Notes under the pieces: model-generated
The model's input: the letters and a program-made list of their open reading frames with translations, nothing else
What the model was told of the DNA's origin: nothing
Databases searched by the model: none
Shown: in pieces, positions 1 through 32,558 of the stretch
Layout: the number at the start of each line of letters is the position of its first letter
Position numbering within the stretch: the stretch's first letter is position 1
Position numbers and translations under genes: made by a program
Source of the DNA: a virus
Taxonomy: Duplodnaviria; Heunggongvirae; Uroviricota; Caudoviricetes
Virus record (IMG/VR): IMGVR_UViG_3300010352_001127
Length of the DNA: 64,000 nucleotides
Reading direction: 5' to 3' (one strand)

Positions 1-1028
1 GAACTTGAAGTTCCACTAGTTCCAGAAGTACCACCAGTTCCACTAGTTCCACTACTACCTTGTTTTCCAGAAGTACCACTTGTTCCACTAGTTCCATCGG
101 TACCACTTGTTCCACTACTACCAAGAAAACTTCCATCTTTTCCACTAGTTCCACTACTACCAAGAAAACTTCCATCTTTCCCAGATGAACCACTAGTGCC
201 GTCAGCACCAACTCCTCCTGTTCCGAAAGGAACATATGATATTAAATAACTTTCATTATTTGTTAGACTACCATTCGAGCTAATATCTGTAACTCCACTA
301 ATTTGATAAACATATAAATATGGAGTCGTGTTTATAGTAATACCACTTATTATATTATATAATCCAAATATTGAGGGGTTATTGTGCAATTCTATTTTTA
401 ACATGCCGCTTGTCCAAGTATCCAGCCAATTGCTTTGATCAACATTATCTGCATCAACTTGACTTATTCTAAAATATTCTGTAGCACTAAAGTGATCATT
501 TCCGCTGTAGAAATATTTTGAAATTGGTATTGGTTGTGTCGAATCATATACCCATCTTCTAGATGCTCCACCATATCCTGAGAATCCACTAGTTCCGCTA
601 CTACCAAAAAAATCTCCATCTACTCCCGAAGATCCACTTGTTCCAGTAAAACCACTAGACCCACTAGACCCACTAGTACCTTTTCCGCTAGTTCCACTGG
701 TTCCAGTTGTACCACTGGATCCTGTTTTTCCGCTAGTTCCACTAGTTCCTTCTTTTCCACTTGTTCCGCTCGATCCATCCTTTCCGCTACTTCCCGAGAA
801 ACCACTGGTTCCACTTGATCCGAAAAAACTTCCATTCAATCCATCCTTACCAGAAGATCCACTTGTTCCAGCCGTTCCACTTAAAGTAATACCAGATGCT
901 ATATAAGTTATAGTTCCATCGGATTCTTTTTGCCATAAACCATAGTCATCGTGACCTAGATAAATAAAACCAACCTCGGGATTACCAATAACTGTTGGAT
1001 CAATTAATTGTAATTTCTTAAAACTCAC
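1..1028 (-). CDS. Collagen-like fibre protein, paralog of the giant 7329..16070 gene; 5' part only (3' end lies upstream of window start); GTG start
   Basis: Reverse-complement translation from 1028 gives MSFKKLQLIDPTVIGNPEVGFIYLGHDDYGLWQK..., matching the giant ORF N-terminus (MSFKKIQRVDPKLIGNPDPGHIYLGQDF...) and its ~470-aa N-terminal domain (WVYD, SYLISY blocks), then (GTS)n G-X-Y repeats. Initiator codon is GTG at 1028-1026, with an in-frame TAA just upstream and no ATG. Missed by the ORF track because it is partial and non-ATG. Confidence 0.6.
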   Translation of the reverse strand, partial: MSFKKLQLIDPTVIGNPEVGFIYLGHDDYGLWQKESDGTITYIASGITLSGTAGTSGSSGKDGLNGSFFGSSGTSGFSGSSGKDGSSGTSGKEGTSGTSGKTGSSGTTGTSGTSGKGTSGSSGSSGFTGTSGSSGVDGDFFGSSGTSGFSGYGGASRRWVYDSTQPIPISKYFYSGNDHFSATEYFRISQVDADNVDQSNWLDTWTSGMLKIELHNNPSIFGLYNIISGITINTTPYLYVYQISGVTDISSNGSLTNNESYLISYVPFGTGGVGADGTSGSSGKDGSFLGSSGTSGKDGSFLGSSGTSGTDGTSGTSGTSGKQGSSGTSGTGGTSGTSGTSS

Positions 1029-1082: not shown

Positions 1083-1823
1083 TTACATTGTCGATGATAT
1101 TATGTTACAAACAACATCCTCGTAAACTTCATAAAATATATAAACTAGCCCGTCTCCACCAGCTCCAGGAACAGAAGCGTTTCCTGTTGTACCGTAAGCG
1201 CCACCTCCACCTCCGCCAGCTTGACGTCCATTGCCACCGAATAAAATTCCAGATGCTCCATTACCACCATTGCCCCCATATTGATTTCCACCATTTCCAC
1301 CAGCACCACCTACTACTCCGCCATTTCCACCTTTACTACCATTTTGTTCTGTTCCGGCTCCGCCTCCGCCGCCACCTCCACGAAGACTGACTCCACCAGC
1401 GCCACCATCGCCTCCATTGTAAGTAGCGTTATTTTCACCCCCTGTGCCTCCTACAGATCCAACACCACCAGCTCCACCAGCAACAGCTCTATTAACTCCT
1501 GTACCACCTCCACCAACAACTAAATTTGATGAATAATCTCCAACTTGACTTAATGATACATAACTATCACCTCCATTAATAACACTATTATTACCACCAG
1601 TACCAACAACTATTTTCATAGTTGTTGGAAGATTTGATGTGTAAGAGAACATGGCACTTCCGCCGCCTCCACCTCCTCCGCCTCCAGTGCTTGCTGCTCC
1701 TAAGGATCCTCTACCACCTCCCCCGATAACGTAAATGGTTAATCCCGTAGTTCCTTGAGGGACCTGTCGATAATAAGTTCCAGGTGTATCATACGTTAAA
1801 GTATCAGCTGGGATTGAATTCAT
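1083..1823 (-). CDS. Glycine-rich (poly-Gly/Gly-Ser/Ala) putative fibre or virion protein; start revised to ATG 1823 (the ORF-track start at 1910 is TTG and overlaps the upstream gene by 73 nt)
   Basis: Long low-complexity Gly tracts (GGGGRGSLGAASTGGGGGGGGGS, GGGGTGVNRAVAGGAGG). The internal ATG at 1823 removes the overlap with the 1838..2677 gene. Confidence 0.45.
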   Translation of the reverse strand: MNSIPADTLTYDTPGTYYRQVPQGTTGLTIYVIGGGGRGSLGAASTGGGGGGGGGSAMFSYTSNLPTTMKIVVGTGGNNSVINGGDSYVSLSQVGDYSSNLVVGGGGTGVNRAVAGGAGGVGSVGGTGGENNATYNGGDGGAGGVSLRGGGGGGGAGTEQNGSKGGNGGVVGGAGGNGGNQYGGNGGNGASGILFGGNGRQAGGGGGGAYGTTGNASVPGAGGDGLVYIFYEVYEDVVCNIISSTM

Positions 1824-1837
1824 ATTAATTATTTTTT

Positions 1838-2677
1838 TTATGTTCCTGTCAAAGTAACGACTAATTGATTGACAGTCCCTGACGCAGAAGCTATATACAA
1901 GGCTAACCAATCCCCAGCAGAAACGCTAGATCCAGTTTTTCCGCTTGCTCCACCCGTTGTTGCTACTATATCCGATCCAAACAAACTCGATGTAGATCCA
2001 ATAGCTCCATAATATATATTAAAAGTGGCACTCGTATTATTTTGAACATAAGCGTTAGCTACAGTCGGAGCATAAGACGCATTTAATCTGGGGCCTAATA
2101 TAACTCCAGGTCCCGGCGAAGACACTACCCAAGTAAAACTTCTTTCGGGGTATGTGCCAGATGTGCCTGATGAACCAGGACTACCAACGCCAGATGTTCC
2201 TGATGAACCAGGACTACCAACGCCAGATGTGCCACTTGTTCCGCTTGTTCCAGTAGTTATATTAGTTACTTCTTTCACAACATTTCCATCCAATACCAAT
2301 TTTGTACCGTTATCAGCTACAGTATCAACATTTGTCATAGTGAGAGTCGAACCAGTCATCCATATATTAGGAATATAAGATGTATTTGTCGCTGAATCCC
2401 AATAAAAATCTGGATCTGTAGCAAATGAATTATCTATAGTCTGCCATGTTCCAACTCCATTAGCATCTGAAGTTAAAACATATCCATTGGATTGTGATCC
2501 GTCCACTATTCTAATAGTGCCGCCAGAAACAACAATTTTTTGGTCTATCGACCAAGCAGCAGATGTTACACCAACACCAATTCTTTTATTGGTTTTGTCA
2601 ATCATAACAACATCCTCTAACATTAAAGATGTGTTACCAGTTTGAGTATATTCTGTATAAAATTTGGTTTGTGACAT
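1838..2677 (-). CDS. Fibre-like protein with a short collagen-like segment (GTSGTSGTSGVGSPGSSG x2) and a C-terminal Thr/Ser-rich beta-rich domain
   Basis: G-X-Y run with a duplicated PDVPDEPGLPT-encoding segment. Promoter-like box CTATATATAATTTT at 2697-2710 upstream. Confidence 0.5.
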   Translation of the reverse strand: MSQTKFYTEYTQTGNTSLMLEDVVMIDKTNKRIGVGVTSAAWSIDQKIVVSGGTIRIVDGSQSNGYVLTSDANGVGTWQTIDNSFATDPDFYWDSATNTSYIPNIWMTGSTLTMTNVDTVADNGTKLVLDGNVVKEVTNITTGTSGTSGTSGVGSPGSSGTSGVGSPGSSGTSGTYPERSFTWVVSSPGPGVILGPRLNASYAPTVANAYVQNNTSATFNIYYGAIGSTSSLFGSDIVATTGGASGKTGSSVSAGDWLALYIASASGTVNQLVVTLTGT

Positions 2678-4830: not shown

Positions 4831-4841
4831 AATTTAACAAC

Positions 4842-5759: not shown

Positions 5760-6442
5760 AATCCCCAAGATTTTTTTCTATCTATGAGTCTTACTACTTT
5801 TTCTTCGACTGGCATGGCATAATTATGATATAAGAAGCTGAGATAATCCATGTCATATTTAGCGAAGAAATCTTTAAACATCACGAATTTTAATCCAAAT
5901 TTTGCGATGTTTCTTGACAACACATAATCGTCAATAAGACTTCTTGGAGTTACTCCATTGTCCGATTCTGATTTTGTTGGGAATATATTATTAGCTGCTT
6001 CATCGGGAGTTAGATCATCTAAAGGTCTCCATAGATCTATGCACCAATCGCTGGCTATTGTAAACCAATTGCAACTTCCGATATTCCTACCATCTCTTAG
6101 AAAATATTCATCGTAACGCCAACGAAGTGATGCCATATCCATCGCTGAGTGAGCAACCGTGTCTTTTGACATTTGTGTAGTTATATCAAATATATCTGGA
6201 TGTATTAAAGCATCACAATCTACATAAATATTCCAATCATTTTTCATTTCTTTTCCGAGTTCGTATATTTGCATTTTTTCATATGTTATATACCACTCTG
6301 GAAATTTACGCTCTTTTATGACATAAAAATCAGCTCCTATTTTATGAGCGTATTTTTTTATATATGGATATGTAATATCTGTTATATCCTTTGAATATTC
6401 ATCGTTAATATTCAAAGTGAAAATTGTTTTCTTTAATCTCAC
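5756..6442 (-). CDS. GT-A-like nucleotide-sugar transferase candidate (DxD-type motif IYVDCDALI); GTG start
   Basis: Hydrophobic stretch + D-C-D + hydrophobic context resembles the DXD motif of GT-A fold transferases. No other family signature is visible. First gene of the operon. Confidence 0.3.
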   Translation of the reverse strand: MRLKKTIFTLNINDEYSKDITDITYPYIKKYAHKIGADFYVIKERKFPEWYITYEKMQIYELGKEMKNDWNIYVDCDALIHPDIFDITTQMSKDTVAHSAMDMASLRWRYDEYFLRDGRNIGSCNWFTIASDWCIDLWRPLDDLTPDEAANNIFPTKSESDNGVTPRSLIDDYVLSRNIAKFGLKFVMFKDFFAKYDMDYLSFLYHNYAMPVEEKVVRLIDRKKSWGL

Positions 6443-6541
6443 TGTAAAAGATTTTTTGATTTATATAAGAAAAAAAATTGAAAAGTTTTATTTTATATTT
6501 TGATTTTTAATATAATATGATTAATTATATTAATATCGATT

Positions 6542-6913
6542 TTATGCATAAGCATCGTCGTCAACAGTTATTAGTGTATTATCTACAGTAACATAAGTAG
6601 TATCTACTAGTACATGAAAACGAGCTTCACACGCACCGCCAAGTAAATTAATAAATTTATCTGTTGCTCCGAGTAAAGTATCACCCAGAGTAGTTCCACT
6701 CAAGCTTATTATTATTGTATCTCCATACAATGTTACACCGGTGTCCCCAGCCAAATCAGATATGAATTTTTGACCTATTAATGTTGTTGATTTATCAGCA
6801 TCTCCTATTAAGTCATCAATTTCTTTTTGACCGGAAAGAGAGCTTGTATATTTGGTACCACCCTCAATAACAATTTTATCTGCAGTAACATCATATAAAT
6901 TACAAGTAGCCAT
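6542..6913 (-). CDS. Hypothetical small fibre-associated protein (internal LIGD/LAGD repeats)
   Basis: ORF packed tandemly between fibre genes; Thr/Gly/Asp-rich with short internal repeats. Confidence 0.35.
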   Translation of the reverse strand: MATCNLYDVTADKIVIEGGTKYTSSLSGQKEIDDLIGDADKSTTLIGQKFISDLAGDTGVTLYGDTIIISLSGTTLGDTLLGATDKFINLLGGACEARFHVLVDTTYVTVDNTLITVDDDAYA

Positions 6914-6930
6914 ATACTTTATATTTTATT

Positions 6931-7269
6931 TTATGATGTTAATAAAACAGGCAAAATTGTAACCGTGCCGATAGCTGGTGTTGTTGGTTGACCAACAGTG
7001 TCAACAAGTCTTAACTCATGATAATAACTACCAGCTGTAATTCCAGTTGTATCAGCAGGTTCTAATGTCACTGTAACATTCTTACCAGACAATGTTATAC
7101 CAAAGCCACCAGACGTTTTTAAAATAGCCTGTGATCCAGTAGCTTCTTCTGTAGTGGACATAGCCCATTCGGCTGTTCCGCCAGTAACAGTAGATACATC
7201 CTCGATATAAAACACAATTTGTCTGTAGTTACCTTTCCATGTTGTAAAATCTTGATTTGTTTTTCCCAT
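6931..7269 (-). CDS. Hypothetical Thr/Gly-rich beta-rich (Ig-like?) small virion protein
   Basis: ORF directly downstream of the giant fibre gene; promoter-like box at 7291-7305. Confidence 0.35.
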   Translation of the reverse strand: MGKTNQDFTTWKGNYRQIVFYIEDVSTVTGGTAEWAMSTTEEATGSQAILKTSGGFGITLSGKNVTVTLEPADTTGITAGSYYHELRLVDTVGQPTTPAIGTVTILPVLLTS

Positions 7270-7290
7270 TTTATTTTTTATTTTTTATTT

Positions 7291-7305
7291 TTATATATTA
7301 AAAAA
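7291..7305 (-). promoter_or_regulatory. Promoter-like box TTATATATTAAAAA upstream of 6931..7269
   Basis: Motif family member. Confidence 0.4.
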
Positions 7306-7328
7306 TATATTTTTTTAATTCTATTCTA

Positions 7329-10300
7329 TTATATTTCAGTGTTGTTAGCAGAAACATAGGAGTATTCAATGACATCAACAGTATATTTCAATTGAAGTTT
7401 ATAACTTGGCGATGGATCCCATCCAGTAGCACTCCTTAAATTATTTTTTAATAATAGATACGGTTTACTGCTATATATTAGAGCTTCCGCATCTATATCA
7501 TTAGGACCTATTTGTCCTTGTGTATCTATCGATGCGTGACGACCCGGAGATGGTGTTTCTGAATTATACTTAACCCAATACCCAGAATGTTGAACTGTTT
7601 TAGTATCTGTTACATAATTAGTATAGCTACCAGTTTGATCTACAAAGACGTTGAAACGATATTCTCTCATCGCTGCCAATGAATAATCGATTGCTGTCAT
7701 TTGTGAAGTAGTGCCAGTATCCATTAAGTGATCCATATAGTAGTAACAATTAACCTTAACAGAGAATCCACTAGTTCCATTTCCACCTGTAACTCCGTGT
7801 GTTGTGGATAAGTCTATTTTACTTTGTGAAGCCCAAGCTGTGGCCCAACTAAACGGAGGTATATCATTTACATAATAATACGTTACTCCAATTCCAGAGG
7901 TTCCACTACTGCCTGTTATTCCTGATGTTCCACTAGTTCCTGAAGTGCCACTAACGCCACTAGTTCCACTGGTGCCATCATTTCCAGATGTTCCGCTTGT
8001 TCCTCTAGCTCCAGATGTTCCGCTAGTTCCACTACTGCCTTGTTTTCCAGATGTTCCACTAGTTCCACTAGTGCCACCTGTTCCACTGGTTCCTGATGTA
8101 CCTCCAGTTCCACTAGTTCCACTACTACCTGTTATTCCAGCGGTTCCGCTAGTTCCTGATGTACCGCCAGTGCCGCTAGTTCCACTACTGCCTTGTTTTC
8201 CAGATGTTCCACTAGTTCCACTTGTACCGCCTGTGCCTGAAGTACCACCAGTGCCATCATGTCCAGATGTTCCGCTTGTTCCACTACTACCATCATTTCC
8301 AGATGTTCCACTTGTACCGCCAGTACCATTTGTTCCTGATGTACCTCCAGTTCCACTAGTTCCACTACTACCTTGTCTTCCAGAAGTACCACTGGTTCCA
8401 CTTGTACCGCCTGTACCATTTGTTCCTGATGTACCTCCAGTTCCACTGGTTCCGCTACTACCATCATTTCCAGATGTGCCTGAAGTACCACCTGTTCCGC
8501 TAGTTCCAGAAGTACCACTACTACCATCATTACCAGATGTTCCACTGGTTCCGCTACTACCATCATTTCCAGATGTTCCGCTAGTTCCACTACTACCATC
8601 ATGTCCGGATGTTCCACTAGTTCCACTAGTTCCACCTGTGCCATTTGTTCCTGATGTACCACCAGTTCCACTAGTTCCACTACTGCCTTGTTTTCCAGAA
8701 GTACCACTTGTGCCACTAGTTCCACCCGTACCATTTGTTCCTGATGTACCACCAGTTCCACTGGTTCCACTACTTCCATCATGTCCTGATGTGCCTGAAG
8801 TTCCTCCAGTACCACTAGTTCCACTACTGCCATCATGTCCAGATGTTCCTGAAGTTCCACCCGTGCCTGAAGTACCGCTTGTACCACCAGTGCCATCATG
8901 TCCAGAAGTACCACTAGTTCCACTACTGCCATCGTGACCAGACGTACCTGAAGTACCACTTGTTCCACTAGTTCCTGATGTACCACTTGTTCCTGATGTA
9001 CCACTACTGCCATCGTGACCAGACGTACCTGAAGTACCACTTGTTCCGCTTGTACCACTACTTCCATCATGTCCTGATGTACCTGAAGTTCCTCCAGTAC
9101 CTGAAGTTCCACTACTTCCATCATGACCAGATGTGCCTGCTGTTCCTGAAGTACCACCAGTACCATTGGTTCCTGAAGTTCCGCCCGTTCCTGATGTACC
9201 ACTACTACCATCATTTCCAGATGTTCCACTAGTTCCACCAGTTCCGTTTGTTCCTGAAGTTCCACCAGTTCCACTAGTTCCACTACTCCCTGAAGTACCG
9301 TTTGTTCCAGAAGTGCCTGAAGTGCCTCCAGTTCCACTTGTACCACTACTACCTTGTTTTCCAGAAGTACCACTTGTACCACTACTACCAGAAGCACCTG
9401 AAGTGCCTGAAGTTCCTCCAGTTCCACTAGTTCCACCTGTTCCATTTGTTCCTGATGTCCCACCAGTTCCACTAGTCCCACTACTTCCTGTTAAACCTGA
9501 AGTTCCGCCAGTTCCTGAAGTTCCTCCTGTTCCCGAGGTACCACTACTACCTTGTTTTCCAGAAGTTCCGCTAGTTCCTGAAGTTCCTCCTGTTCCGCTG
9601 GTACCTGAAGTTCCACCAGTGCCACTAGTTCCACTACTACCATCGTGTCCAGATGTTCCACTTGTTCCACTAGTTCCACTACTTCCTGAAGTTCCTCCAG
9701 TTCCACTAGTTCCACTGCTTCCAGAAGTTCCACTAGTCCCAGAAGTACCACTAGTACCTCCAGTACCACTAGTTCCACTACTACCTTGTTTTCCAGAAGT
9801 TCCGCTGGTTCCTGAAGTACCGCTTGTGCCGCCTGTTCCGCTAGTACCTGAAGTACCACCTGTACCACTAGTTCCACTACTGCCATCGTGTCCCGAAGTA
9901 CCACTAGTACCTCCAGTTCCGCTAGTTCCACTACTACCATCATGTCCAGATGTTCCACTAGTTCCACTGCTACCTGAAGTTCCTGAAGTACCATTTGTTC
10001 CACTTGTACCTGAAGTTCCACTTGTACCACTACTACCTTGTTTTCCAGAAGTACCATTTGTACCACTTGTACCACTACTACCTGAAGTTCCACCAGTTCC
10101 AGAAGTACCGCCAGTTCCATTTGTTCCTGAAGTGCCTCCAGTTCCGCTAGTTCCACTAGTTCCACTAGTTCCATCATGACCCGATGTTCCCGAAGTTCCA
10201 CCTGTACCAGATGTTCCTGATGTCCCGCCTGTTCCGCTTGTTCCACTACTTCCATCATGACCCGATGTTCCTGAAGTGCCACCCGTGCCTGAAGTACCAC

Positions 10301-13300
10301 CTGTACCAGATGTTCCTGATGTCCCGCCTGTTCCGCTTGTTCCACTACTTCCATCATGACCCGATGTTCCTGAAGTGCCACCCGTGCCTGAAGTACCACC
10401 TGTGCCACCAGTTCCACTAGTTCCACTACTTCCAGAAGTTCCACTAGTTCCACTACTTCCAGAAGTTCCGCTTGTTCCACTACTACCATCGTGGCCAGAA
10501 GTTCCACTAGTTCCGCTTGTTCCACTACTACCATCGTGGCCAGAAGTTCCACTAGTTCCAGCAGTTCCACTTGTGCCAGAAGTGCCACCTGTTCCGCTTG
10601 TACCACTACTTCCATCATGTCCAGATGTACCTGATGTTCCACTTGTTCCGGAAGTACCACCTGTTCCACTTGTACCACTACTTCCATCATGTCCAGATGT
10701 ACCTGATGTTCCACTTGTTCCTGCTGTACCTGATGTTCCACTTGTACCGCCTGTACCTGAAGTTCCACTACTACCTGATGTTCCACTCGTGCCACTAGTT
10801 CCCGAAGTACCACTACTACCTTGTTTTCCAGAAGTACCACTTGTACCACTAGTTCCACTACTTCCTGAAGTTCCACCAGTTCCAGAAGTACCACCTGTTC
10901 CATTTGTACCTGATGTACCACTTGTCCCGCTAGTTCCGCTAGTCCCACTACTACCATCATGTCCAGATGTTCCAGAAGTTCCAGAAGTACCACCTGTTCC
11001 GTTAGTTCCTGAAGTACCACCTGCTCCACTAGTTCCACTACTTCCATCATGACCTGAAGTTCCAGAAGTACCACTTGTCCCGCTAGTTCCGCTAGTCCCA
11101 CTACTACCATCATGTCCAGATGTTCCTGAAGTTCCAGAAGTACCACCTGTTCCACTAGTTCCACTACTTCCATCACGACCTGAAGTTCCTGAAGTGCCGC
11201 CTGTTCCGTTAGTTCCTGAAGTACCACCTGTTCCACTAGTTCCACTAGTTCCGCTTGTTCCACTACTACCACTAGTACCGCCAGTTCCGCCTGTACCAGA
11301 AGTACCACTTGTTCCCGATGTGCCACTGCTACCATCATGACCGGAAGTTCCACTAGTTCCACTTGTTCCACTAGTTCCACTACTACCATCATGTCCAGAA
11401 GTACCACTAGTTCCTGAAGTACCACCTGTTCCACTAGTTCCTGAAGTGCCGCCTGTTCCACTTGTACCACTGCTACCATCAACGCCCGAAGTTCCAGAAG
11501 TTCCTCCTGTACCTGATGTTCCATTTGTCCCACTTGTGCCTCCAGTGCCTGAAGTACCACTACTACCAGATGTGCCTGAAGTTCCTCCAGTACCACTAGT
11601 TCCACTACTACCTTGTTTTCCAGAAGTACCACTAGTTCCACTACTTCCAGAAGTTCCTGAAGTGCCAGAAGTTCCCCCAGTGCCACTTGTTCCTCCAATA
11701 CCACTAGTTCCACTACTTCCAGAAGTTCCTGAAGTGCCAGAAGTTCCCCCAGTGCCACTTGTTCCTCCAATACCACTAGTTCCACTACTTCCATCATAAC
11801 CACTTGTTCCCGAAGTTCCTCCCGTACCTGATGTTCCTGAAGTACCACCTGTACCACTAGTTCCACTACTTCCATCATGACCACTTGTTCCAGAAGTGCC
11901 ACTGCTACCACTTGTACCGCTTGTTCCGCCAGTACCAGAAGTGCCACCTGTTCCACTAGTTCCACTAGTACCGCTACTACCATCGTGTCCTGATGTACCA
12001 CTTGTTCCTGAAGTTCCTCCAGTACCACTAGTTCCGCTAGTTCCTGAAGTTCCACTACTTCCATCGTGACCAGAAGTACCACTAGTTCCACTAGTTCCGT
12101 TTGTTCCTGAAGTTCCACCAGTTCCACTACTTCCTGTCGCACCTGATGTTCCAGAGGTTCCGCCGGCACCGCTAGTTCCTGATGTACCGCCAGTTCCACT
12201 AGTTCCACTACTTCCTCCTGTACCTGATGTGCCACTAGTTCCAGAAGTTCCACTCGTACCACCAGTTCCACTAGTTCCACTACTACCTTGTTTACCGGAA
12301 GTACCACTTGTACCACTACTTCCAGAAGTTCCCGAAGTGCCTGAAGTTCCTCCAGTACCACTTGTTCCTCCAGTACCACTAGTTCCACTACTTCCTGTTG
12401 CGCCAGAAGTTCCAGATGTTCCGCCTGTTCCAGATGTACCACTAGTTCCACCTGTTCCAGATGTACCGCTACTCCCATCGTGACCTGAAGTACCTGATGT
12501 ACCTGAAGTACCACTTGTTCCTCCTGTTCCTGAAGTTCCTCCAGTTCCGCTAGTCCCACTACTTCCTGAAGTTCCGCTAGTCCCACTTGTTCCTGAAGTT
12601 CCACCTGTGCCATTTGTTCCACTAGTACCACTTGATCCTGATACTCCACTTGTTCCACTAGTTCCTCCAGTTCCACTAGTTCCACCTGTTCCACTAGTTC
12701 CAGAAGAACCAGACGTACCACTTGTTCCGCTAGTTCCCGAAGTACCACTACTACCTTTTGCGCCCGAAGTTCCACTAGTTCCAGATATACCACTAGTTCC
12801 ACCTGTACCTGATGTACCGCTCGTGCCGCCAGTTCCGCTAGTCCCGCTACTTCCACTTGTACCACTACTACCAGATGTTCCATTAGTTCCTGAAGTACCA
12901 CCAGTGCCATTCGTGCCACTCGTACCTCCAGTTCCTGAAGTACCACTACTACCTGATGTTCCACTAGTTCCACTACTTCCAGAAGTTCCACTAGTTCCAC
13001 TAGTTCCAGAAGTGCCACTGCTACCTGATGTACCGCTAGATCCAGAAGTACCACTAGTTCCTGATGTACCTGAAGTTCCACTTGTTCCTGAAGTACCGCC
13101 TGTTCCACTAGTACCGCTACTTCCTTGGGCTCCACTAGTTCCACTGGTTCCACTTGTACCCCCAGTACCGCTTGTTCCTGATGTCCCGCCTGTTCCACTA
13201 GTTCCACTACTACCTTGAGCCCCACTAGTTCCTGAAGTACCACTGCTACCTTGTGCTCCGCTGGTTCCACTTGTACCACCAGTTCCGCTAGTTCCACTAC

Positions 13301-16070
13301 TACCTTGAGCCCCGCTTGTTCCTGAAGTACCACCAGTACCACTCGTACCACTTGTACCACTTGTTCCCCCAGTACCACTAGTTCCACTACTACCTGATGT
13401 TCCACTAGTTCCACTACTTCCAGAAGTGCCTGAAGTTCCACCAGTTCCGCTTGTTCCAGATGAACCAGAAGTACCACTACTGCCCTGAGCTCCTGAAGTT
13501 CCAGATGTACCACCAGTCCCAGATGTTCCACTAGTTCCGCCAGTTCCGCTAGTTCCACTACTTCCTGAAGTACCTGATGTTCCACTACTACCAGATGTTC
13601 CCCCCGTACCTGAAGTTCCGCTAGATCCAGATGTTCCTCCTGACCCGCTTGTACCAGATGTTCCACTTGTACCGCCAGTTCCGCTAGTTCCACTACTACC
13701 TTGAGCTCCACTAGTTCCACTCGTGCCACTAGTTCCTGAAGTTCCACTACTACCTTGAGCTCCACTAGTTCCACTTGTTCCGCTAGATCCGCTAGTTCCA
13801 CTAGTACCGCTTGTGCCCGATGTACCTGAAGTTCCACTAGAACCACTTGTACCGCTGGTTCCACTGATACCAGTCAATCCACTAGTTCCACTTGTTCCTG
13901 AGGTGCCCCCAGTTCCGCTCGTACCGCTAGATCCAGAAGTACCACTACTACCAGAAGTACCTGAAGAACCTGATGTTCCGCTAGTTCCACTACTACCTGA
14001 TGTTCCACTTGTTCCAGACGTACCACTAGTCCCGCTAGTACCTGAAGTTCCACTAGTTCCACTGGATCCTGAAGTTCCCCCAGTGCCACTAGTTCCACTA
14101 CTACCTTGAGCTCCACTAGTTCCAGAAGTCCCACTACTACCTGATGTTCCACTTGTTCCAGAAGTACCACTACTACCCGATGTTCCAGATGTACCACCAG
14201 TCCCAGATGTTCCACTACTTCCACTAGTCCCTGAAGTTCCTGATGTTCCAGACGAACCACTCGTTCCTGATGTTCCTCCTGTACCTGATGTTCCTCCGGT
14301 TCCACTACTTCCTTGTGCTCCACTAGTTCCACTGGTTCCTGAAGTTCCGCTACTACCTGTTAAACCACTGGTTCCACTAGAACCACTAGTACCACTACTA
14401 CCACTAGTTCCTGATGTTCCGCTTGTACCACTGCTGCCAGATGTTCCACTAGTACCACTACTTCCTGAAGTTCCACTAGTACCACTAGTTCCTGATGTTC
14501 CGCTTGTACCACTGCTGCCAGATGTTCCACTAGTACCACTACTTCCTGAAGTTCCACTAGTTCCGCTACTACCACTAGTTCCAGATGTACCACTACTACC
14601 TTGTGCTCCACTAGTTCCACTACTACCAGTTTCTCCTGATGTTCCGCTGGTTCCGCTTGTACCTGAAGTTCCACTGGAACCAAAACCACTAGTACCAGAT
14701 GTTCCTAAACCAGCATCAGTATAAGTAAAAACAATAGGTTCGTCTAATATAAAATTGTTATTTGAATCTATCGGTGTAACATCTAATGTCCACCAAGATC
14801 CATTATCTGTTTTAGCATCTAAATAAAAAGTTGCAAATTTAGTAGAATCGTATTCATCGAATATTCTGATTCTAGACATTCCATTGGCATTAAGACTACT
14901 TAACCAAGAACTTATATCAACACCATCTTTACTTGTCTGACTTATGTATATTTGAGTTACTGAACCGTATACAGTATTATCAAATTTTAAATATCCAGAT
15001 AGAGGATTTGATGCTGTTGTTCCTGTTAAGAAATAATATGGTTGGCTATCACCTCCAAATATTCCAGATAAACCAGAAGATCCAGGAGAACCCATACCTG
15101 ATGTTCCACTAGTTCCACTTACACCACTACTTCCATAAAACCATCCATCAACACCAGATGATCCTGAAGTCCCACTACTTCCAGTTCCACCTTGAATATA
15201 AGATATTAAATACGATTTCCCGTTTGTAGCTGAACCTCCTCCTGATGCGTAAACTGAAAATCCAGTTATTTCATAAAAATTGCCACCTAATCCAAGATTA
15301 ACACTATTAATGGGAACATTATATATGCCTACAACTGAAAGATTTTCTCTCTCTTCTATTTTTAATACGCCTTGAATATTCCACGAACTTAACCAATTAT
15401 TTACAAGATCTCCATTCGCGTCCCATTTATTTATTCTTATATTTGTTACAGCCCCTAAATTTGAATTATTTATGTAGAATTTTCCATTCCCAGGAGTTGA
15501 TGTACTATTATCATAAACCCATTTACGCGTAGCTCCACCATAACCACCATCTATACCGCTACTTCCACTAGTTCCACTACTACCTCCGAGTCCTGATGTA
15601 CCACTTGATCCACTAGAGCCTGATGTACCTGAAGATCCTGCTTCGCCGCTACTTCCACTTGTTCCGGATGTACCACTTGTGCCACTTGTTCCTCTACCGC
15701 TTGTTCCGCTTGTGCCACCTGTTCCACTCGTACCTCCAGTTCCACTGGTTCCGCCAGTTCCGTCTCTGCCGCTGCTACCACTTGATCCATCTCTACCACT
15801 ACTACCACTTGTTCCATCAGCTCCGCTTGATCCAAAGAAAACACCATCAACACCCGATGTACCGTCTTTTCCAGATGTGCCACTAGTTCCACCTCCACCA
15901 CTTCCTGAAGATGTCGCACCAGTACATGGCAAATAATAAATATTTCCCCACTCGTCCTTTTGCCAAAGGCCGCAAAAACCATCTATAAAATCTTGACCTA
16001 AGTATATATGCCCCGGATCTGGATTACCAATTAGTTTCGGGTCTACTCTTTGGATTTTTTTGAAACTCAT
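7329..16070 (-). CDS. Giant collagen-like fibre protein (2913 aa): N-terminal ~470-aa duplicated beta-rich domain, ~2250 aa of (G-T/S-S/G)n collagen triplets, C-terminal ~190-aa globular domain
   Basis: Uninterrupted G-X-Y periodicity over about 6.7 kb with no Pro and with periodic charged triplets (GHD, GKQ, GND, GAQ, GRD). The conserved N-terminus is shared with the paralog at 1..1028. Codons GGN-ACT-AGT dominate. Confidence 0.8.
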   Translation of the reverse strand: MSFKKIQRVDPKLIGNPDPGHIYLGQDFIDGFCGLWQKDEWGNIYYLPCTGATSSGSGGGGTSGTSGKDGTSGVDGVFFGSSGADGTSGSSGRDGSSGSSGRDGTGGTSGTGGTSGTGGTSGTSGRGTSGTSGTSGTSGSSGEAGSSGTSGSSGSSGTSGLGGSSGTSGSSGIDGGYGGATRKWVYDNSTSTPGNGKFYINNSNLGAVTNIRINKWDANGDLVNNWLSSWNIQGVLKIEERENLSVVGIYNVPINSVNLGLGGNFYEITGFSVYASGGGSATNGKSYLISYIQGGTGSSGTSGSSGVDGWFYGSSGVSGTSGTSGMGSPGSSGLSGIFGGDSQPYYFLTGTTASNPLSGYLKFDNTVYGSVTQIYISQTSKDGVDISSWLSSLNANGMSRIRIFDEYDSTKFATFYLDAKTDNGSWWTLDVTPIDSNNNFILDEPIVFTYTDAGLGTSGTSGFGSSGTSGTSGTSGTSGETGSSGTSGAQGSSGTSGTSGSSGTSGTSGSSGTSGTSGSSGTSGTSGTSGTSGTSGSSGTSGTSGSSGTSGTSGTSGSSGTSGSSGTSGLTGSSGTSGTSGTSGAQGSSGTGGTSGTGGTSGTSGSSGTSGTSGTSGSSGTSGTGGTSGTSGSSGTSGTSGTSGSSGTSGTSGAQGSSGTSGTGGTSGSSGTSGTSGTSGTSGTSGTSGTSGSSGTSGTSGSSGTSGSSGTSGSSGTSGTGGTSGTSGTSGLTGISGTSGTSGSSGTSGTSGTSGTSGTSGSSGTSGTSGAQGSSGTSGTSGTSGTSGAQGSSGTSGTGGTSGTSGTSGSGGTSGSSGTSGTGGTSGSSGTSGTSGSSGTSGTGGTSGTSGTGGTSGTSGAQGSSGTSGSSGTSGTGGTSGTSGSSGTSGTSGSSGTSGTGGTSGTSGTSGTGGTSGTSGAQGSSGTSGTGGTSGTSGAQGSSGTSGTSGAQGSSGTSGTGGTSGTSGTGGTSGTSGTSGAQGSSGTSGTGGTSGTSGTSGTSGTSGTSGSSGTSGSSGTSGTSGTSGTSGSSGTSGTSGSSGTSGTGGTSGTNGTGGTSGTNGTSGSSGTSGSSGTSGTGGTSGTSGTGGTSGISGTSGTSGAKGSSGTSGTSGTSGTSGSSGTSGTGGTSGTGGTSGTSGVSGSSGTSGTNGTGGTSGTSGTSGTSGSSGTSGTGGTSGTGGTSGTSGTSGTSGHDGSSGTSGTGGTSGTSGTGGTSGTSGATGSSGTSGTGGTSGTGGTSGTSGTSGSSGTSGTSGKQGSSGTSGTGGTSGTSGTSGTSGTGGSSGTSGTGGTSGTSGAGGTSGTSGATGSSGTGGTSGTNGTSGTSGTSGHDGSSGTSGTSGTSGTGGTSGTSGTSGHDGSSGTSGTSGTGGTSGTGGTSGTSGSSGTSGTSGHDGSSGTSGTGGTSGTSGTGGTSGTSGYDGSSGTSGIGGTSGTGGTSGTSGTSGSSGTSGIGGTSGTGGTSGTSGTSGSSGTSGTSGKQGSSGTSGTGGTSGTSGSSGTSGTGGTSGTNGTSGTGGTSGTSGVDGSSGTSGTGGTSGTSGTGGTSGTSGTSGHDGSSGTSGTSGTSGTSGHDGSSGTSGTSGTSGTGGTGGTSGSSGTSGTSGTSGTGGTSGTNGTGGTSGTSGRDGSSGTSGTGGTSGTSGTSGHDGSSGTSGTSGTSGTSGTSGHDGSSGTSGAGGTSGTNGTGGTSGTSGTSGHDGSSGTSGTSGTSGTSGTNGTGGTSGTGGTSGSSGTSGTSGTSGKQGSSGTSGTSGTSGTSGSSGTSGTGGTSGTSGTAGTSGTSGTSGHDGSSGTSGTGGTSGTSGTSGTSGHDGSSGTSGTGGTSGTSGTAGTSGTSGHDGSSGTSGTSGTSGHDGSSGTSGTSGSSGTSGTSGSSGTSGTGGTGGTSGTGGTSGTSGHDGSSGTSGTGGTSGTSGTGGTSGTGGTSGTSGHDGSSGTSGTGGTSGTSGTGGTSGTSGHDGTSGTSGTSGTGGTSGTNGTGGTSGTGGTSGSSGTSGTNGTSGKQGSSGTSGTSGTSGTNGTSGTSGSSGTSGTSGHDGSSGTSGTGGTSGTSGHDGSSGTSGTGGTSGTSGTGGTSGTSGTSGTSGKQGSSGTSGTGGTSGTSGTSGTSGSSGTSGTGGTSGSSGTSGTSGTSGHDGSSGTSGTGGTSGTSGTGGTSGTSGTSGKQGSSGTSGTGGTSGTGGTSGLTGSSGTSGTGGTSGTNGTGGTSGTGGTSGTSGASGSSGTSGTSGKQGSSGTSGTGGTSGTSGTNGTSGSSGTSGTGGTSGTNGTGGTSGTSGNDGSSGTSGTGGTSGTNGTGGTSGTAGTSGHDGSSGTSGTGGTSGTSGHDGSSGTSGTSGTSGTSGHDGSSGTSGTSGTSGTSGTSGTSGTSGHDGSSGTSGTSGHDGTGGTSGTSGTGGTSGTSGHDGSSGTSGTGGTSGTSGHDGSSGTSGTGGTSGTNGTGGTSGTSGTSGKQGSSGTSGTGGTSGTNGTGGTSGTSGTSGHDGSSGTSGTSGNDGSSGTSGTSGNDGSSGTSGTSGTGGTSGTSGNDGSSGTSGTGGTSGTNGTGGTSGTSGTSGRQGSSGTSGTGGTSGTNGTGGTSGTSGNDGSSGTSGTSGHDGTGGTSGTGGTSGTSGTSGKQGSSGTSGTGGTSGTSGTAGITGSSGTSGTGGTSGTSGTGGTSGTSGTSGKQGSSGTSGTSGARGTSGTSGNDGTSGTSGVSGTSGTSGTSGITGSSGTSGIGVTYYYVNDIPPFSWATAWASQSKIDLSTTHGVTGGNGTSGFSVKVNCYYYMDHLMDTGTTSQMTAIDYSLAAMREYRFNVFVDQTGSYTNYVTDTKTVQHSGYWVKYNSETPSPGRHASIDTQGQIGPNDIDAEALIYSSKPYLLLKNNLRSATGWDPSPSYKLQLKYTVDVIEYSYVSANNTEI
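7900..14700. repeat. Collagen-triplet nonamer-based repeat region containing perfect in-frame tandem duplications (99 bp at 10171-10403, 72 bp at 11627-11793, 81 bp at 14401-14562)
   Basis: Direct comparison of the sequence lines shows exact 99-, 72- and 81-nt units repeated 2-2.3 times. All are multiples of 9 nt, so Gly phase is preserved. Confidence 0.7.
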
Positions 16071-16147: not shown

Positions 16148-16738
16148 TTATCTTTGCATATCAAAGAAAATTTTATATTTAAATATTTCATCGTCAGATA
16201 GAAAAATATCCAGATCCATTGAATTTATAATCATAACGCCGTCTTTAGCCATATCTTCGACGATGGGAGTCATTTGATCGAAAAAACGTGTTGCATCTAC
16301 AATCAAAAAAGTTTTGAAAAATACAGAGCAATCTTTGGCCGTTTCTTTTACATTGAAATCTCCTGGAAGTCCAACTACATAAACTTCTTTTACATCGTTT
16401 TTATCTAAAAAATCATAAAGATTTAAACCATCTTCATTAACTCCAACAAAACCGCTCAAATCTATGGTTTTCTCACCTTTTGTGAAAATAGTAGTTTCTT
16501 TTAAATCTAAATCTGGATGAAAATCTGCGCCTTCAGTATTTTGAATACAATGAGGAGGAATTTCATCAGTGAAAGATTTATGATTGACTGGATGCCAATC
16601 TCTTGATGCTACAGTTAAATCAAATTTATCTTTGATTTCGTTAATTATAGGAATAATTCTATCTCCGAAAGGAACAGGATATGTTCCACCGGGCATAAAA
16701 TCCTTTTGAACATCAACAATAAATAAAGCTCTTTTCAT
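16148..16738 (-). CDS. pncA: PncA-like isochorismatase-family protein (nicotinamidase/pyrazinamidase homolog); the expected nucleophile Cys appears to be replaced by Asn
   Basis: Motifs ALFIVDVQKDFMPGG, DWHPVNH, PPHC, GADFHPDLD, SGFVGVNEDG and VYVVGLPGDFNVKETAKD are co-linear with PncA (…VVGIATDHCVRQTAED…); D and K of the triad and the metal-binding His/Asp residues are conserved. Confidence 0.6.
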   Translation of the reverse strand: MKRALFIVDVQKDFMPGGTYPVPFGDRIIPIINEIKDKFDLTVASRDWHPVNHKSFTDEIPPHCIQNTEGADFHPDLDLKETTIFTKGEKTIDLSGFVGVNEDGLNLYDFLDKNDVKEVYVVGLPGDFNVKETAKDCSVFFKTFLIVDATRFFDQMTPIVEDMAKDGVMIINSMDLDIFLSDDEIFKYKIFFDMQR

Positions 16739-16739
16739 A

Positions 16740-17105
16740 TTATTCTAATCTAATAACACCACTATCAACTTCAAATGTTTTCTTTTCTACCAGAGTGTCT
16801 GGCAAAACAAAAGTTTTTCCATCCTGTAAAACCATAACAGTTCCTTTCTTTGGAAAATGAACAGGATTTTTGCATGTTTCGCTATGGAATAAAAAGGAAT
16901 TAAATGCTGGTTTTAATGAAAGACGTCCATTGGTTTTCAAATAACCCATGTATTCGTGCCCTTCAATTTCATAAACATATAAGGTGATCCCATTCACGAC
17001 AACATGTCTTTTAGCATTCATTTCTTTATCAATATCAACTTTCTGTTTACAACCAGTAAACAGAAAAAGACACATTATTACTAATAATCCTAAAAATTTT
17101 TTCAT
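16740..17105 (-). CDS. Lipoprotein (signal peptide + lipobox LFTGC)
   Basis: MKKFLGLLVIMCLFLFTGCKQK N-terminus. Confidence 0.5.
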   Translation of the reverse strand: MKKFLGLLVIMCLFLFTGCKQKVDIDKEMNAKRHVVVNGITLYVYEIEGHEYMGYLKTNGRLSLKPAFNSFLFHSETCKNPVHFPKKGTVMVLQDGKTFVLPDTLVEKKTFEVDSGVIRLE

Positions 17106-17125
17106 TTTACAAATATATTAATTTT

Positions 17126-18106
17126 TTAATAGTTAAAAAAATTCTTTTTAACTATATCTATAGCTTTTTGTGTTCTTTCTTCCCAATCAGTTCCACTCAC
17201 AACCTCCATTTTTAAATTTTTAGATTTAAAAAAGTTGTATTGGAAATCACCAAGATCATCTCTTTTTTCTTTTGAAAGGCGAGTTCCATCTTGTATATAA
17301 GGGGCATCTTTATCTAAGAAAATGTATAAATCGAATTTGTTTGCTTCTTCAATCCAATTATCGAATACGGGTTCAAGATCGAAGAAAAATTTAGAATAAG
17401 ATTTTGTTGTATTTAAATTTGTGTCGCTAAATAATATCCTATTAGCGTGTTTTATTTCTTCGATTATGCCACTAGCATGAGCTTTTCCAACATTCATGAT
17501 ATCTTTTATAGTTGTATTGTCTGAATGTTCGATTATATCTCTACCCCACTCTTTTACATAAGATGTTTGAAAAACTTTTGACAATTTTTCTGTAAGAACT
17601 GTTTTTCCAGTACTTTCTGTTCCACACAGACATATTTTCTTAACAAAATAAGGTCTTGCTACAAGTGATATATAATCCCAATACTTGAAAGGATTTTCTC
17701 TTATCTGAGTGCCACTTATTGGAACAGTTTCACGTTTTTCGTCAAATATTACATATCCACAATTCATATACTCAGCAACATACTCTGCGTAAGGTTCTGA
17801 AGCAAACACAACATCTACATTATCTAAAGTTTTACTTATGTGATCAGCCCATAGTTTAGATACTTCCCTATCAGAAACAGAAGTATATGGAAGTTTTACA
17901 TCGGTATATCTTATAATAACTTTATAATCATCCCTATATTTATCCGTAAGCCAGTGAAGTCTCACGTAACCTGGTATGGTTTCTTTTTCGTCATTCATAC
18001 ATAAAAGAACATATAAGAGATCACATTTCTCTTTAGCAAAATTTATAAGTGCTTCGTGACCTAAAGAAATTGGTTCTGCTTTTAAAATTATCAGTCCTCT
18101 TATCAT
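17126..18106 (-). CDS. nadR: NadR-type bifunctional NMN adenylyltransferase / ribosylnicotinamide kinase (no HTH domain)
   Basis: Nucleotidyltransferase (H/T)xGH-type motif (GLIILKAEPISLGHEALI) near the N-terminus. Later P-loop LCGTESTGKT (GxESxGKS/T of the NadR RNK domain). 326 aa. Confidence 0.7.
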   Translation of the reverse strand: MIRGLIILKAEPISLGHEALINFAKEKCDLLYVLLCMNDEKETIPGYVRLHWLTDKYRDDYKVIIRYTDVKLPYTSVSDREVSKLWADHISKTLDNVDVVFASEPYAEYVAEYMNCGYVIFDEKRETVPISGTQIRENPFKYWDYISLVARPYFVKKICLCGTESTGKTVLTEKLSKVFQTSYVKEWGRDIIEHSDNTTIKDIMNVGKAHASGIIEEIKHANRILFSDTNLNTTKSYSKFFFDLEPVFDNWIEEANKFDLYIFLDKDAPYIQDGTRLSKEKRDDLGDFQYNFFKSKNLKMEVVSGTDWEERTQKAIDIVKKNFFNY

Positions 18107-18942: not shown

Positions 18943-18956
18943 AAGAACTTTTTATT

Positions 18957-18971
18957 CTTATATATTAAAAA
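18957..18971 (-). promoter_or_regulatory. Promoter-like box CTTATATATTAAAAA upstream of 18103..18942
   Basis: Motif family member, 15 nt upstream of the ATG. Confidence 0.45.
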
Positions 18972-19008
18972 CTAAAAATCACTTTTAACCTTTTCATTGT
19001 GGTCATTT

Positions 19009-19434: not shown

Positions 19435-19437
19435 ATG

Positions 19438-32545: not shown

Positions 32546-32558
32546 TTTTCATTAGTGA

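Follow-up and report, generated by a model that had tools for sequence, protein, structure and literature searches.

The gene on the minus strand at positions 7329-16070 of the 64,000-nucleotide viral DNA stretch analysed here (the window) is real and constrained, and its sequence supports a collagen-like repeat protein with 755 consecutive proline-free G-X-Y triplets. Both the repeat and the constraint on its glycines are established. On balance, the protein is probably a fibre of modular build from a huge Mahaphage-clade phage; it is most likely homotrimeric, attached to the virion and involved in host adsorption. The features referred to below are as follows.

7329..16070, minus strand: whole CDS, 2913 aa, ~251 kDa, pI ~5.0 (stop codon 7329-7331, ATG start)
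15921..16070, minus strand: N-terminal module, aa 1-50, MSFKKIQ..P..IG.P..GHIYLG.D..GLW.K, proposed virion-docking anchor (near-invariant columns of the family alignment)
15531..15899, minus strand: proximal Pro-free GXY segments, aa 58-180, 7+16+17 triplets with two breaks of 1-2 residues (triplet count)
15192..15530, minus strand: beta-sandwich domain Nd1, aa 181-293, beginning after GGYGGATRKW (AF2 pLDDT ~90-97)
15090..15191, minus strand: short GXY linker, aa 294-327, 6+5 triplets (triplet count)
14691..15053, minus strand: Nd2, aa 340-460, distant duplicate of Nd1 (31% identity, E=3e-7)
7887..14681, minus strand: uninterrupted (G-X-Y)755 shaft, aa 464-2728, no Pro, 1241 Ser+Thr (triplet count; Pfam Collagen)
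7332..7886, minus strand: all-beta domain at the C-terminus, aa 2729-2913, putative nucleus for trimerisation and/or tip for receptor binding
1838..2677, minus strand: 279-aa ORF, fibre-tip-like, without collagen (local blastp)
1083..1910, minus strand: 275-aa Gly_rich_2 (PF21722) protein (Pfam)
1..1028, minus strand: paralog of the fibre gene, truncated at the left end of the window, sharing its anchor, proximal GXY and Nd1 (alignment)

The gene and its glycine array

The 2913-aa frame described in an earlier note on this DNA is present as a single ORF with an ATG start, to which the strand is now added. Alignment of the MSFKK... N-terminus with 12 homologs backs the start, both ends of the 8.7-kb frame are supported by homology, and the third codon positions are A/T-rich, as elsewhere in the genome. 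Long ORFs in other frames across the repeat (e.g. 9491..13864, 1457 aa) were discounted, as the repeat itself generates them.

The count of 755 unbroken triplets bears out the earlier estimate of about 750 between residues ~470 and ~2720, as well as the absence of proline: all 19 prolines of the protein lie outside the run. The commonest triplets are GTS (438), GSS (113), GTG (102) and GHD (28). Position X was correctly read as mostly T or S (T 563, S 114, H 28, A 17, K 10), and so were S and G at position Y (S 556, G 108, D 37, Q 21, N 19), but threonine, also listed for Y, occurs there only 8 times. Glycine makes up ~38% of the array, and the side chains are small. While X and Y vary along the array, glycine stays fixed: positions 1-2 of its codon are unchanged in 755 of 755 units, and position 3 has an entropy of 1.47 bits. 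Since the first two positions are invariant and the third is free, a chance origin of the periodicity is excluded. With glycine at every third residue, a 247-aa piece matches Pfam PF01391 (Collagen) at 79.7 bits and the N-terminal part at 29.2 bits, both above the gathering threshold (27.2).

The known stabilisers of the triple helix, imino acids at X or Y and KGD/KGE charge pairs, are lacking. The 2265 residues of the array include 38 D+E, 14 K+R and 28 H (~2-3% charged), without any KGD/KGE-type pair; the sole Lys at Y (GAK) precedes GSS. The earlier description of one charged triplet every 7-12 triplets fits the distal two-thirds, where GTS-G[HKN][DQ]-GSS motifs occur and the spacing from triplet 244 on has a median of 9.5 (IQR 7-15, range 3-25), but not the first ~240 triplets, which are nearly free of charge and in which uncharged GAQ recurs at irregular intervals of 3-41 triplets. 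Charged triplets cannot be the general stabiliser they had been suggested to be, since the first quarter or so of the rod (to ~triplet 213) is almost devoid of them and charge pairs of the KGD/KGE type are missing. Proline and alanine are each accessible by 818 single-mutation paths, and the array holds 0 Pro vs 21 Ala; proline is thus apparently avoided. The absence of so reachable a residue runs counter to simple selection for helix stability, which predicts the reverse.

Phage origin and the anchor family

The phage origin of the gene and the architecture of its family are shown by protein comparison. By this measure the window is from a huge phage related to LR756501, a manually curated 735-kb genome of an uncultured Mahaphage-clade phage whose predicted host belongs to the Bacteroidetes (Al-Shayeb et al. 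2020). Neighbouring genes share 56-71% amino acid identity with LR756501 in conserved synteny, in agreement with the earlier assignment to a phage, and the common order runs from a TonB-type receptor through NadR and isochorismatase to the fibre genes. The relatives are found at the protein level only, a megablast search with 24 kb of the window giving no match among phage records. No tRNAs were found in the window. LR756501 also has a Gly_rich_2 domain after a collagen-like gene, and the 279-aa ORF has end domains in common with the distal parts of two of its collagen-like proteins.

On alignment evidence, the protein belongs to an unnamed modular family, the 'MSFKK-anchor' fibre family of Mahaphage-like phages, whose members comprise a conserved 47-aa N-terminus (MSFKKIQ...), short Pro-free GXY segments, a beta-sandwich (duplicated here), and a variable shaft and tip. 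The 47-aa N-terminus, the proximal Pro-free GXY and the GGYGGATRxW beta domain are all present in this protein, which aligns with 12 relatives at 40-56% identity; 9 IMG/VR loci add to these. The same N-terminus occurs in 2 genes here, in 3 of LR756501 and in ~18 further database proteins or loci, and the distal domains differ. The second copy here is the paralog noted earlier as starting at 1028; it is real, lies on the minus strand and runs past the left end of the window. Family members mostly measure 316-773 aa, and giants occur only here and in LR756501.

Two giant paralogs of LR756501 (3487 and 2830 aa), unannotated there, share the anchor, the position after NadR and isochorismatase, and Nd1/Nd2 at 56-58% identity. 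Their C-terminal domains differ, and their arrays, unlike the one here, are interrupted. The 3487-aa protein, the closest counterpart, has Pro-free GTS/GSS runs of 246, 308 and 238 triplets; elsewhere the runs are Pro-rich and of at most 163 triplets. Indeed, same-anchor paralogs of LR756501 carry classical bacterial-collagen triplets, with 73 GPQ and 52 GPT in one 163-triplet run, which supports the view that Pro-free GTS/GSS and GPQ/GPT shafts are interchangeable on a common anchor. A small ConA-like lectin ORF comes after every fibre gene of LR756501, whereas such ORFs were not found here. In the Mahaphage clade, the fibre locus beside NadR seems to be a hypervariable island for host recognition.

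Among the flanking domains, the N-terminal module (aa 1-50) is modelled by AF2 as a small beta meander (pLDDT 75-85), with no match in Pfam or the PDB. The proximal Pro-free GXY is present in nearly all family members, and Nd1 is conserved throughout. Nd1 and Nd2 are distant duplicates, as the earlier note had proposed for the beta-rich N-terminal part; AF2 confidence is low for Nd2. This domain is 58% identical to its LR756501 counterpart and has homologs in P0006, located in a crAss-like capsid-tail block, and in the 'tail fiber' of Pelagibacter phage HTVC010P. The C-terminal globular domain, estimated earlier at about 190 aa, corresponds to 185 non-repeat residues. An exhaustive HMMER search gave it 13 relatives; a word-index search returned only its own fragment, and tblastn against phages nothing at E<=1. 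Searches of PDB sequences retrieved collagens alone, by virtue of the glycine periodicity, with no match to either end domain. Structure matches were weak or absent for both: Foldseek found none at E<=0.001 for the N-terminal model against the PDB or for the C-terminal model against BFVD. At E<=1, Collagen was the only Pfam family to match either terminal part, PF08400, PF06820 and PF03406 being absent.

The fibre model and its alternatives

The order of domains is that of a fibre: N-terminal attachment domain, collagen shaft, C-terminal globular domain. Moreover, the same anchor on several genes with differing distal domains points to fibre-type modularity. The trimeric state, triple helix, glycosylation, virion location and function of the protein are inferred. 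In the proposed model, the conserved 47-aa N-terminus would dock the fibre at a particle site also used by paralogous fibres, and the proximal part would form two beta-sandwich knobs with short GXY stretches. The array would fold into a collagen-type triple-helical shaft, probably thin and rather flexible given the lack of imino acids and glycine at Y in one of seven triplets. Its contour would be ~650 nm, a length given in the earlier note whose arithmetic is correct (2265 residues x 0.286 nm = 648 nm) and which presupposes a continuous triple helix. The 185-aa C-terminal beta domain may register the three chains and/or bind the host surface. The shaft would owe its stability to its length, the terminal trimeric domain, Ser/Thr hydration networks and possibly O-glycosylation, and not to proline or salt bridges. 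Such a long tether would let a very large particle that diffuses slowly capture hosts over a wider radius.

The lack of proline and of KGD/KGE clamps, together with the almost uncharged first quarter, weighs against this fibre and helix reading; on the host-guest scale of Persikov and Brodsky, Thr in position X and Ser or Gly in position Y reportedly rank among the poorer triple-helix formers. As to O-glycosylation, already raised in the earlier note, a (GPT)10 peptide is unable to fold unless its Thr carries glycans. The genomic evidence here is circumstantial: GT1/GT9 and GT2 genes adjoin family members in two other phage contigs (L008 and L012) and an SDR resembling nucleotide-sugar dehydratases/epimerases lies 2.5 kb downstream of the gene, but Pfam detected no glycosyltransferase in the window among almost all ORFs of at least 100 aa. 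That the shaft is a continuous ~0.65-micrometre collagen triple helix, free of imino acids, nearly devoid of charge pairs and stabilised by Ser/Thr hydration and/or by dense O-glycosylation directed by the phage, is possible but doubtful.

Collagen-like phage fibres are already known. In EPclA, a side tail fibre protein encoded by an E. coli O157:H7 prophage, experiments (Ghosh et al. 2012, PMC3368898) showed a phage-fibre domain at the N-terminus, followed by a collagen helix and a domain for trimerisation at the C-terminus. Our protein resembles it in being phage-encoded, in its attachment domain, GXY shaft and C-terminal trimerising or binding domain, and in having no hydroxyproline. Unlike EPclA, whose short collagen part has Pro at X and ~22% charged residues, it has a long, Pro-free and weakly charged array, and the PfN, PfC and Pf2 domains are absent. 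A Ser/Thr/Pro-rich G-X-Y protein, orf028 of the T4-like cyanophage P-SSM2, was put forward as a tail-fibre candidate (Sullivan et al. 2005, PMC1079782), and that paper cites a 'bacteriophage collagen' (Smith et al. 1998, as cited in PMC1079782). The cyanophage proteins likewise belong to large phage genomes, have Ser/Thr-rich repeats and were read as trimeric tail-fibre shafts; by contrast they contain Pro and are shorter, and no anchor or tip homology was detected. Fibre-connector proteins of Synechococcus phages show weak domain similarity to Nd2. A further parallel is BclA, the exosporium filament of Bacillus anthracis/cereus, in which, as in other Thr-rich bacterial collagens, stability is linked to O-glycosylation. 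BclA also combines a Thr-rich collagen-like region with a globular C-terminal domain, but it has only tens of triplets, of the form GPT with Pro in position X and Thr in position Y, against 755 here with Thr at X and Ser at Y. The head of BclA is C1q/TNF-like, whereas the C-terminal model here has no C1q/TNF jelly-roll match, and a head of that kind was not found.

The earlier note had called the fibre extraordinary. This stands for the uninterrupted length but not for the composition: Pro-free GTS-type repeats of 50-80 triplets are common among metagenomic phage-like proteins and S/T-rich GXY has been known since 2005 (cyanophage P-SSM2), so that the composition is not unique and the uninterrupted length alone is exceptional.

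It is unlikely that the Gly/Ser/Thr shaft serves as a flexible tether, for the most part disordered or adopting a helix only transiently, and perhaps forming a densely O-glycosylated mucin-like brush. Triple-helix propensity is at the low end, with no Pro, few charges and glycine at Y in 108 triplets; the apparent avoidance of Pro, the 1241 Ser/Thr per chain and the glycosyltransferases beside family genes elsewhere would also suit a tether, as would the pLDDT of ~30 that AF2 assigns to the GXY stretches, though a triple helix is beyond what a single-chain model can represent. However, disorder needs no glycine at every third residue, and none of the 755 glycines has changed while synonymous sites and X/Y sites diverged. 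Furthermore, paralogs with the same anchor carry canonical GPQ/GPT collagen. Such a tether would join the N-terminal anchor to the C-terminal binding domain, or coat the particle.

The length of the array could in part be an artefact, short-read metagenome assembly having expanded, collapsed or misjoined repeats, which we consider improbable. The gene is a long degenerate tandem array whose total repeat number comes from one assembly; exact 38-50-mers from mid-gene and the 5' part retrieved no other assembly from metagenomes and viral contigs, and the sole independent contig found (L003, 1870 bp) stops inside the repeat. Yet that contig reproduces the last 1839 nt of the gene in frame with one synonymous difference, its other difference being a 1-nt indel in a 3' intergenic A-run, and independent confirmation covers only the last 1.27 kb of the repeat. 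At the DNA level the units are only 55-85% identical, with no exact repeat of at least 150 nt and just 8 repeated 100-mers, and the frame is held over 8.7 kb between homology-supported ends. Comparable Pro-free arrays (238-308 triplets) occur, moreover, in the 3487-aa paralog of the curated 735-kb genome.

There is an equally small chance that the protein, instead of being a virion component, is produced by the infected cell for export or display, for instance changing the host surface, aggregating cells or blocking superinfection. The gene is surrounded by auxiliary metabolic genes acting on host physiology or envelope (TonB-dependent receptor, PnuC transporter, NAD salvage, M28 peptidases), and no recognisable tail or baseplate gene was found in the 64-kb window; this setting weighs against a virion fibre. 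On the other hand, no signal peptide is evident by eye at the conserved N-terminus, and domains are shared with genes of phage structural blocks and with annotated tail fibres. Multiple paralogs, variable tips and adjacent lectin ORFs (in LR756501) are also typical of receptor-binding proteins.

Very improbable, finally, is a shorter, thicker body of polyproline-II/polyglycine-II helix bundles in place of a 650-nm thread: Gly-X-X arrays do resemble PGII folds such as those of the snow-flea antifreeze protein and gp38-type adhesins, an alternative fold with glycine at every third residue and small side chains, and Gly_rich_2 proteins lie in the same gene cluster, but those folds have more glycine and short helices joined by turns, whereas here turn motifs lack regular spacing, the punctuation is irregular (3-41 triplets), the register is unbroken for 2265 residues, and the Pro-rich repeats of the paralogs could not pack as PGII sheets.

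Implications for huge phages

Gene callers split or mis-frame repeat genes of this kind, and assemblies break within them; giant fibre genes are thus probably under-counted in metagenomic phage catalogues. The array is a candidate scaffold for recombinant collagen materials free of imino acids. The uninterrupted helix of vertebrate fibrillar collagen spans ~330-340 triplets. If the fibre reading is true, the helix proposed here would be more than twice as long, and would offer a natural test of the limits of the triple helix without proline, hydroxyproline or salt bridges. The fibre would then probably be exceptionally long for a phage, and would act as a long-range capture line, fibre length having grown along with particle size. 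It would show how the largest known phages, which are slow to diffuse, reach their hosts.

The probable fibre gene and its Gly-X-Y array

The ORF listing gives a single ORF of 2913 aa with an ATG start at 7329..16070; its translation is as the earlier note described, and the gene lies on the minus strand. The shaft of the protein is indeed an uninterrupted Pro-free Gly-X-Y array, counted by script at 755 consecutive triplets (aa 464-2728, 0 Pro), and the 19 Pro of the protein all fall in the end regions. The triplets comprise GTS (438), GSS (113), GTG (102), GHD (28), GTN (19), GAQ (10), GKQ (10) and GND (6), with Thr (563) or Ser (114) at X, and Ser (556), Gly (108, about one triplet in seven), Asp (37), Gln (21) and Asn (19) at Y. 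Additional shorter GXY runs occupy aa 58-180 and aa 294-327. A charged triplet every 7-12 triplets, as had been claimed, is found from triplet 244 on (median 9.5, IQR 7-15, range 3-25) and not in the first ~240 triplets, which are irregularly punctuated by uncharged GAQ, the first ~210 being essentially without charge. The punctuating triplets stand in a fixed setting, GTS-G[H/K/N][D/Q]-GSS, in which GSS comes next in 58 of 63 cases.

The N-terminal domain is duplicated (aa ~176-295 versus ~340-460, 31% identity, E=3e-7), and the paralog said to start at 1028 exists, on the minus strand and truncated by the window edge. Collagen is the only Pfam family that matches the fibre protein; no Pfam match was obtained for the 47-aa N-terminal anchor with the first beta domain, or for the C-terminal domain. 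An AF2 model of the N-terminal part, built from a 12-sequence alignment, shows the anchor as a small beta meander (pLDDT 75-85) and a beta sandwich at aa ~180-295 (pLDDT about 90-97), with low confidence elsewhere; a Foldseek search of this model against the PDB returned nothing significant.

At E<=1e-20, 35 proteins matched a 247-aa piece of the repeat. The sequences examined among them (14 of 14) are Pro-free or nearly so, of GTS/GSS type and about 50-80 triplets long. Several of the 35 matches carry a C-terminal Peptidase_S74, a domain that phage tail fibres and spikes typically use as an intramolecular chaperone. Together with the Ser/Thr-rich GXY noted in cyanophage P-SSM2 (PMC1079782), the GTS/GSS matches make this composition class a common one, for which the literature searched held no experimental study. 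What stands out is the uninterrupted 755-triplet array: no other family member comes near it, and a human collagen alpha-chain, at roughly 330 triplets (literature value), is less than half as long. The fibre is of a known kind, the phage collagen-like fibres, and we hold it somewhat more probable than an even chance that a huge phage of Bacteroidota type makes it as a modular, probably trimeric virion fibre whose shaft is collagen-type and imino-acid-free.

The anchor family and the possible fold of the shaft

The N-terminal query matched ten database proteins, and nine loci came from scanning IMG/VR with a pattern. Common to most members are the 47-aa N-terminus MSFKKIQ..P..IG.P..GHIYLG.D..GLW.K, about 35-40 GXY triplets without Pro, a beta domain beginning after GGYGGATRxW and a variable distal part; two of the ten database matches (P0006 and P0011) resemble the query in the second beta domain only. 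Member length runs from 316 to 773 aa; the GXY parts comprise 14-104 triplets and hold 0-1 Pro. Giant versions were found only in this window and in LR756501, a 735-kb genome of the Mahaphage clade with a predicted Bacteroidetes host (Al-Shayeb et al. 2020, where collagen or tail fibres receive no mention). The LR756501 cluster holds three anchor genes and a fourth collagen-like gene with a different N-terminus:

Anchor gene 1: 814 aa, mixed GSS/GTS/GPS triplets
Anchor gene 2: 2830 aa, classical GPQ/GPT triplets, 191 Pro
Anchor gene 3: 3487 aa, Pro-free GTS/GSS/GTT runs of 246, 308 and 238 triplets
Fourth gene: 1196 aa, 257 GPT/GPQ triplets

That one anchor carries either canonical bacterial-collagen or Pro-free repeats is the strongest argument for both kinds of shaft doing the same job. 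The C-terminal domains vary among paralogs and between both phages.

In bacterial collagens, Pro typically fills 19-31% of X positions and Thr 32-48% of Y positions. The triple helix of the prophage protein EPclA is stable although it lacks hydroxyproline, thanks to Pro and charged residues (PMC3368898). The window shaft has none of these stabilisers. Prokaryotic collagen-like chains reach about 2000 triplets with interruptions, in a study whose authors count a Gly in X or Y as one of these. Without galactosylation of its Thr, the peptide (Gly-Pro-Thr)10 stays a random coil. Single-nucleotide paths from the Thr/Ser codons lead to Pro and to Ala equally often (818 each), yet Ala occurs 21 times and Pro never, which suggests that Pro is excluded and not just absent; a need for Ser/Thr as modification sites, or for flexibility, is a possible cause. 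The shaft could be pictured as a glycosylated, flexible tether that forms no stable helix, a reading that we consider unlikely beside the exchange of repeat types on a shared anchor.

The grounds for suspecting glycosylation of the shaft are circumstantial and come from gene neighbourhoods. In the 243-kb phage contig L008, two multi-domain GT1/GT9 genes (GT1 and GT1+GT9, region 2108-7866) lie directly upstream of two collagen-like fibre genes, and in contig L012 a GT2 gene (4950-6137) lies 3.4 kb upstream of a family member. The window itself offers only the SDR and radical-SAM genes, 1.6-3.4 kb downstream, among these three between the two fibre genes:

2716-3900 (-), RCC1-repeat beta-propeller protein
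3946-4830 (-), nucleotide-sugar 4,6-dehydratase/epimerase-like SDR
4842-5768 (-), radical-SAM protein, under all NCBIfam cut-offs

The three proteins might modify the fibre or a sugar donor; the LR756501 fibre locus has no counterparts of them.

Coding constraint and assembly support

The repeat region has about 50% G+C against roughly 30% for the genome, because of its Gly, Thr and Ser codons; third codon positions are still A/T-rich, and the gene therefore looks native. Both gene ends are backed by homology, in one frame: 12 other proteins align with the N-terminus from Met1 on, and an exhaustive HMMER search gave 13 relatives for the C-terminal 185 aa. Across the 755 units positions 1 and 2 of the Gly codon are invariant, position 3 has an entropy of 1.47 bits, and the X and Y codons vary; thus the units diverged while the Gly register was never broken. 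Long ORFs in other frames, up to 1457 aa (9491-13864 (-), 7945-8937 (+) and 9133-10179 (+)), were rejected as spurious products of the repeat.

We give only a small chance to the array length being partly due to misassembly. Repeat units are 55-85% alike in DNA, the gene has no exact repeats of at least 150 nt, and only eight 100-mers recur. Moreover, an independent 1870-bp contig (L003, JGI sample 3300025867) runs collinearly with window 7298-9167. Inside the gene its sole difference is one synonymous change, while a 1-nt indel falls in an intergenic A-run; the contig spans 1.27 kb of repeat in frame before ending within it. Exact-match scans for further assemblies of the repeat found nothing, so the exact triplet number depends on one assembly. 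The automatic gene calls on L003 are out of frame or begin at a Met inside the gene, which helps to account for databases holding fragments only. At 10192-10407 a 99-bp unit is duplicated (98% identity, 2.2 copies, against the 55-85% typical of the array). This duplication is a sign of recent unit gain, and repeat length is thus probably polymorphic.

Genomic setting and links to host recognition

Against deposited phages, megablast of 24 kb of the window gave no close match in DNA. In protein, LR756501/LR756503 match the 1069-aa product of 52887-56096 along its entire length at 71% identity; other uncultured phages of 630-640 kb, Lak phages and Sphingomonas phage PAU give remoter matches. Synteny with LR756501 extends to three genes before the fibre genes, TonB-dependent-receptor-like (56% identity), NadR (62%) and isochorismatase-family (59%). 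Elsewhere the window has the gene content usual for a huge phage, with many ORFs lacking a family match; a phage-encoded NAD+ salvage set lies on the minus strand (16148-20324 and 36656-37597):

16148-16738 (-), isochorismatase/nicotinamidase-like; kept in LR756501
17126-18106 (-), NadR-like NMN adenylyltransferase with AAA_28 kinase domain; kept in LR756501
19755-20324 (-), PnuC NMN transporter
36656-37597 (-), PRPP synthetase

Outside this set the window encodes:

20763-22847 (-), TonB-dependent-receptor-like, 694 aa (Plug and beta-barrel)
61828-63310 (+), UvsW-type helicase; C-terminal part matches Hint/intein splicing domains
33227-33970 (-), ATP-dependent DNA ligase domain, adjoining the next
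32559-33227 (-), HNH endonuclease
42922-44574 (+) and 46691-47581 (-), less than 5 kb apart, DUF7487/homing-endonuclease family; the former matches PHROG 3339 (E=1e-127)
25277-26773 (-), 30891-32039 (+), 35793-36653 (-), 47817-48452 (-), 50940-51413 (+), two M28-family peptidases, polyphosphate kinase 2, SPFH/Band-7, Hsp20

Outer-membrane receptors are unusual among auxiliary genes, and the one encoded here agrees with a host that is Gram-negative (Bacteroidota). An intein seems to interrupt the UvsW gene, which may extend into the next ORF (62840-63310), and the ligase gene may have been invaded or split by a homing endonuclease.

Several links connect the fibre to virions. P0006, the second-beta-domain homolog, sits among the capsid, ring and muzzle genes of a crAss-like block; weak matches of the same domain are a Pelagibacter phage HTVC010P protein annotated as tail fibre and, in Synechococcus phages, genes named "baseplate wedge tail fiber connector"; and PHROG tail-fibre families match the N-terminal part, in part via its GXY stretch. 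In LR756501 a small ConA-like lectin ORF (Laminin_G_3) follows each giant collagen-like fibre gene, one additionally bearing a CBM_4_9 domain, and a Gly_rich_2 protein follows the fourth collagen gene; these are candidate separate adhesins. The ORFs concerned are:

LR756501 fibre locus, reverse complement (388873-429853): 9384-10127, 18676-19416, 29977-30873, 31529-33052, 33192-34265, 37930-39519, lectin and Gly_rich_2 ORFs
Window, 1083-1910, Gly_rich_2 ORF between the two fibre genes
Window, 1838-2677, 279-aa ORF between the fibre genes, with end domains common to distal parts of LR756501 collagen proteins

Taken together, P0006, the tail-fibre matches and these ORFs make the fibre locus look like a variable host-recognition island; against this, tail or baseplate genes could not be recognised anywhere in the 64-kb window, and the gene is directly flanked by auxiliary genes. 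With such neighbours the protein might act outside the virion, which we think improbable given the links to virion genes. Polyglycine-II-style packing of the shaft is the least probable reading of all.

For the favoured virion fibre with a collagen-type shaft, the earlier length of about 650 nm holds as a contour (2265 x 0.286 nm = 648 nm) if the triple helix is continuous, and the proximal GXY segments would add about 44 nm on the same assumption. If true, a 0.65-micrometre triple helix without proline would be of high interest.
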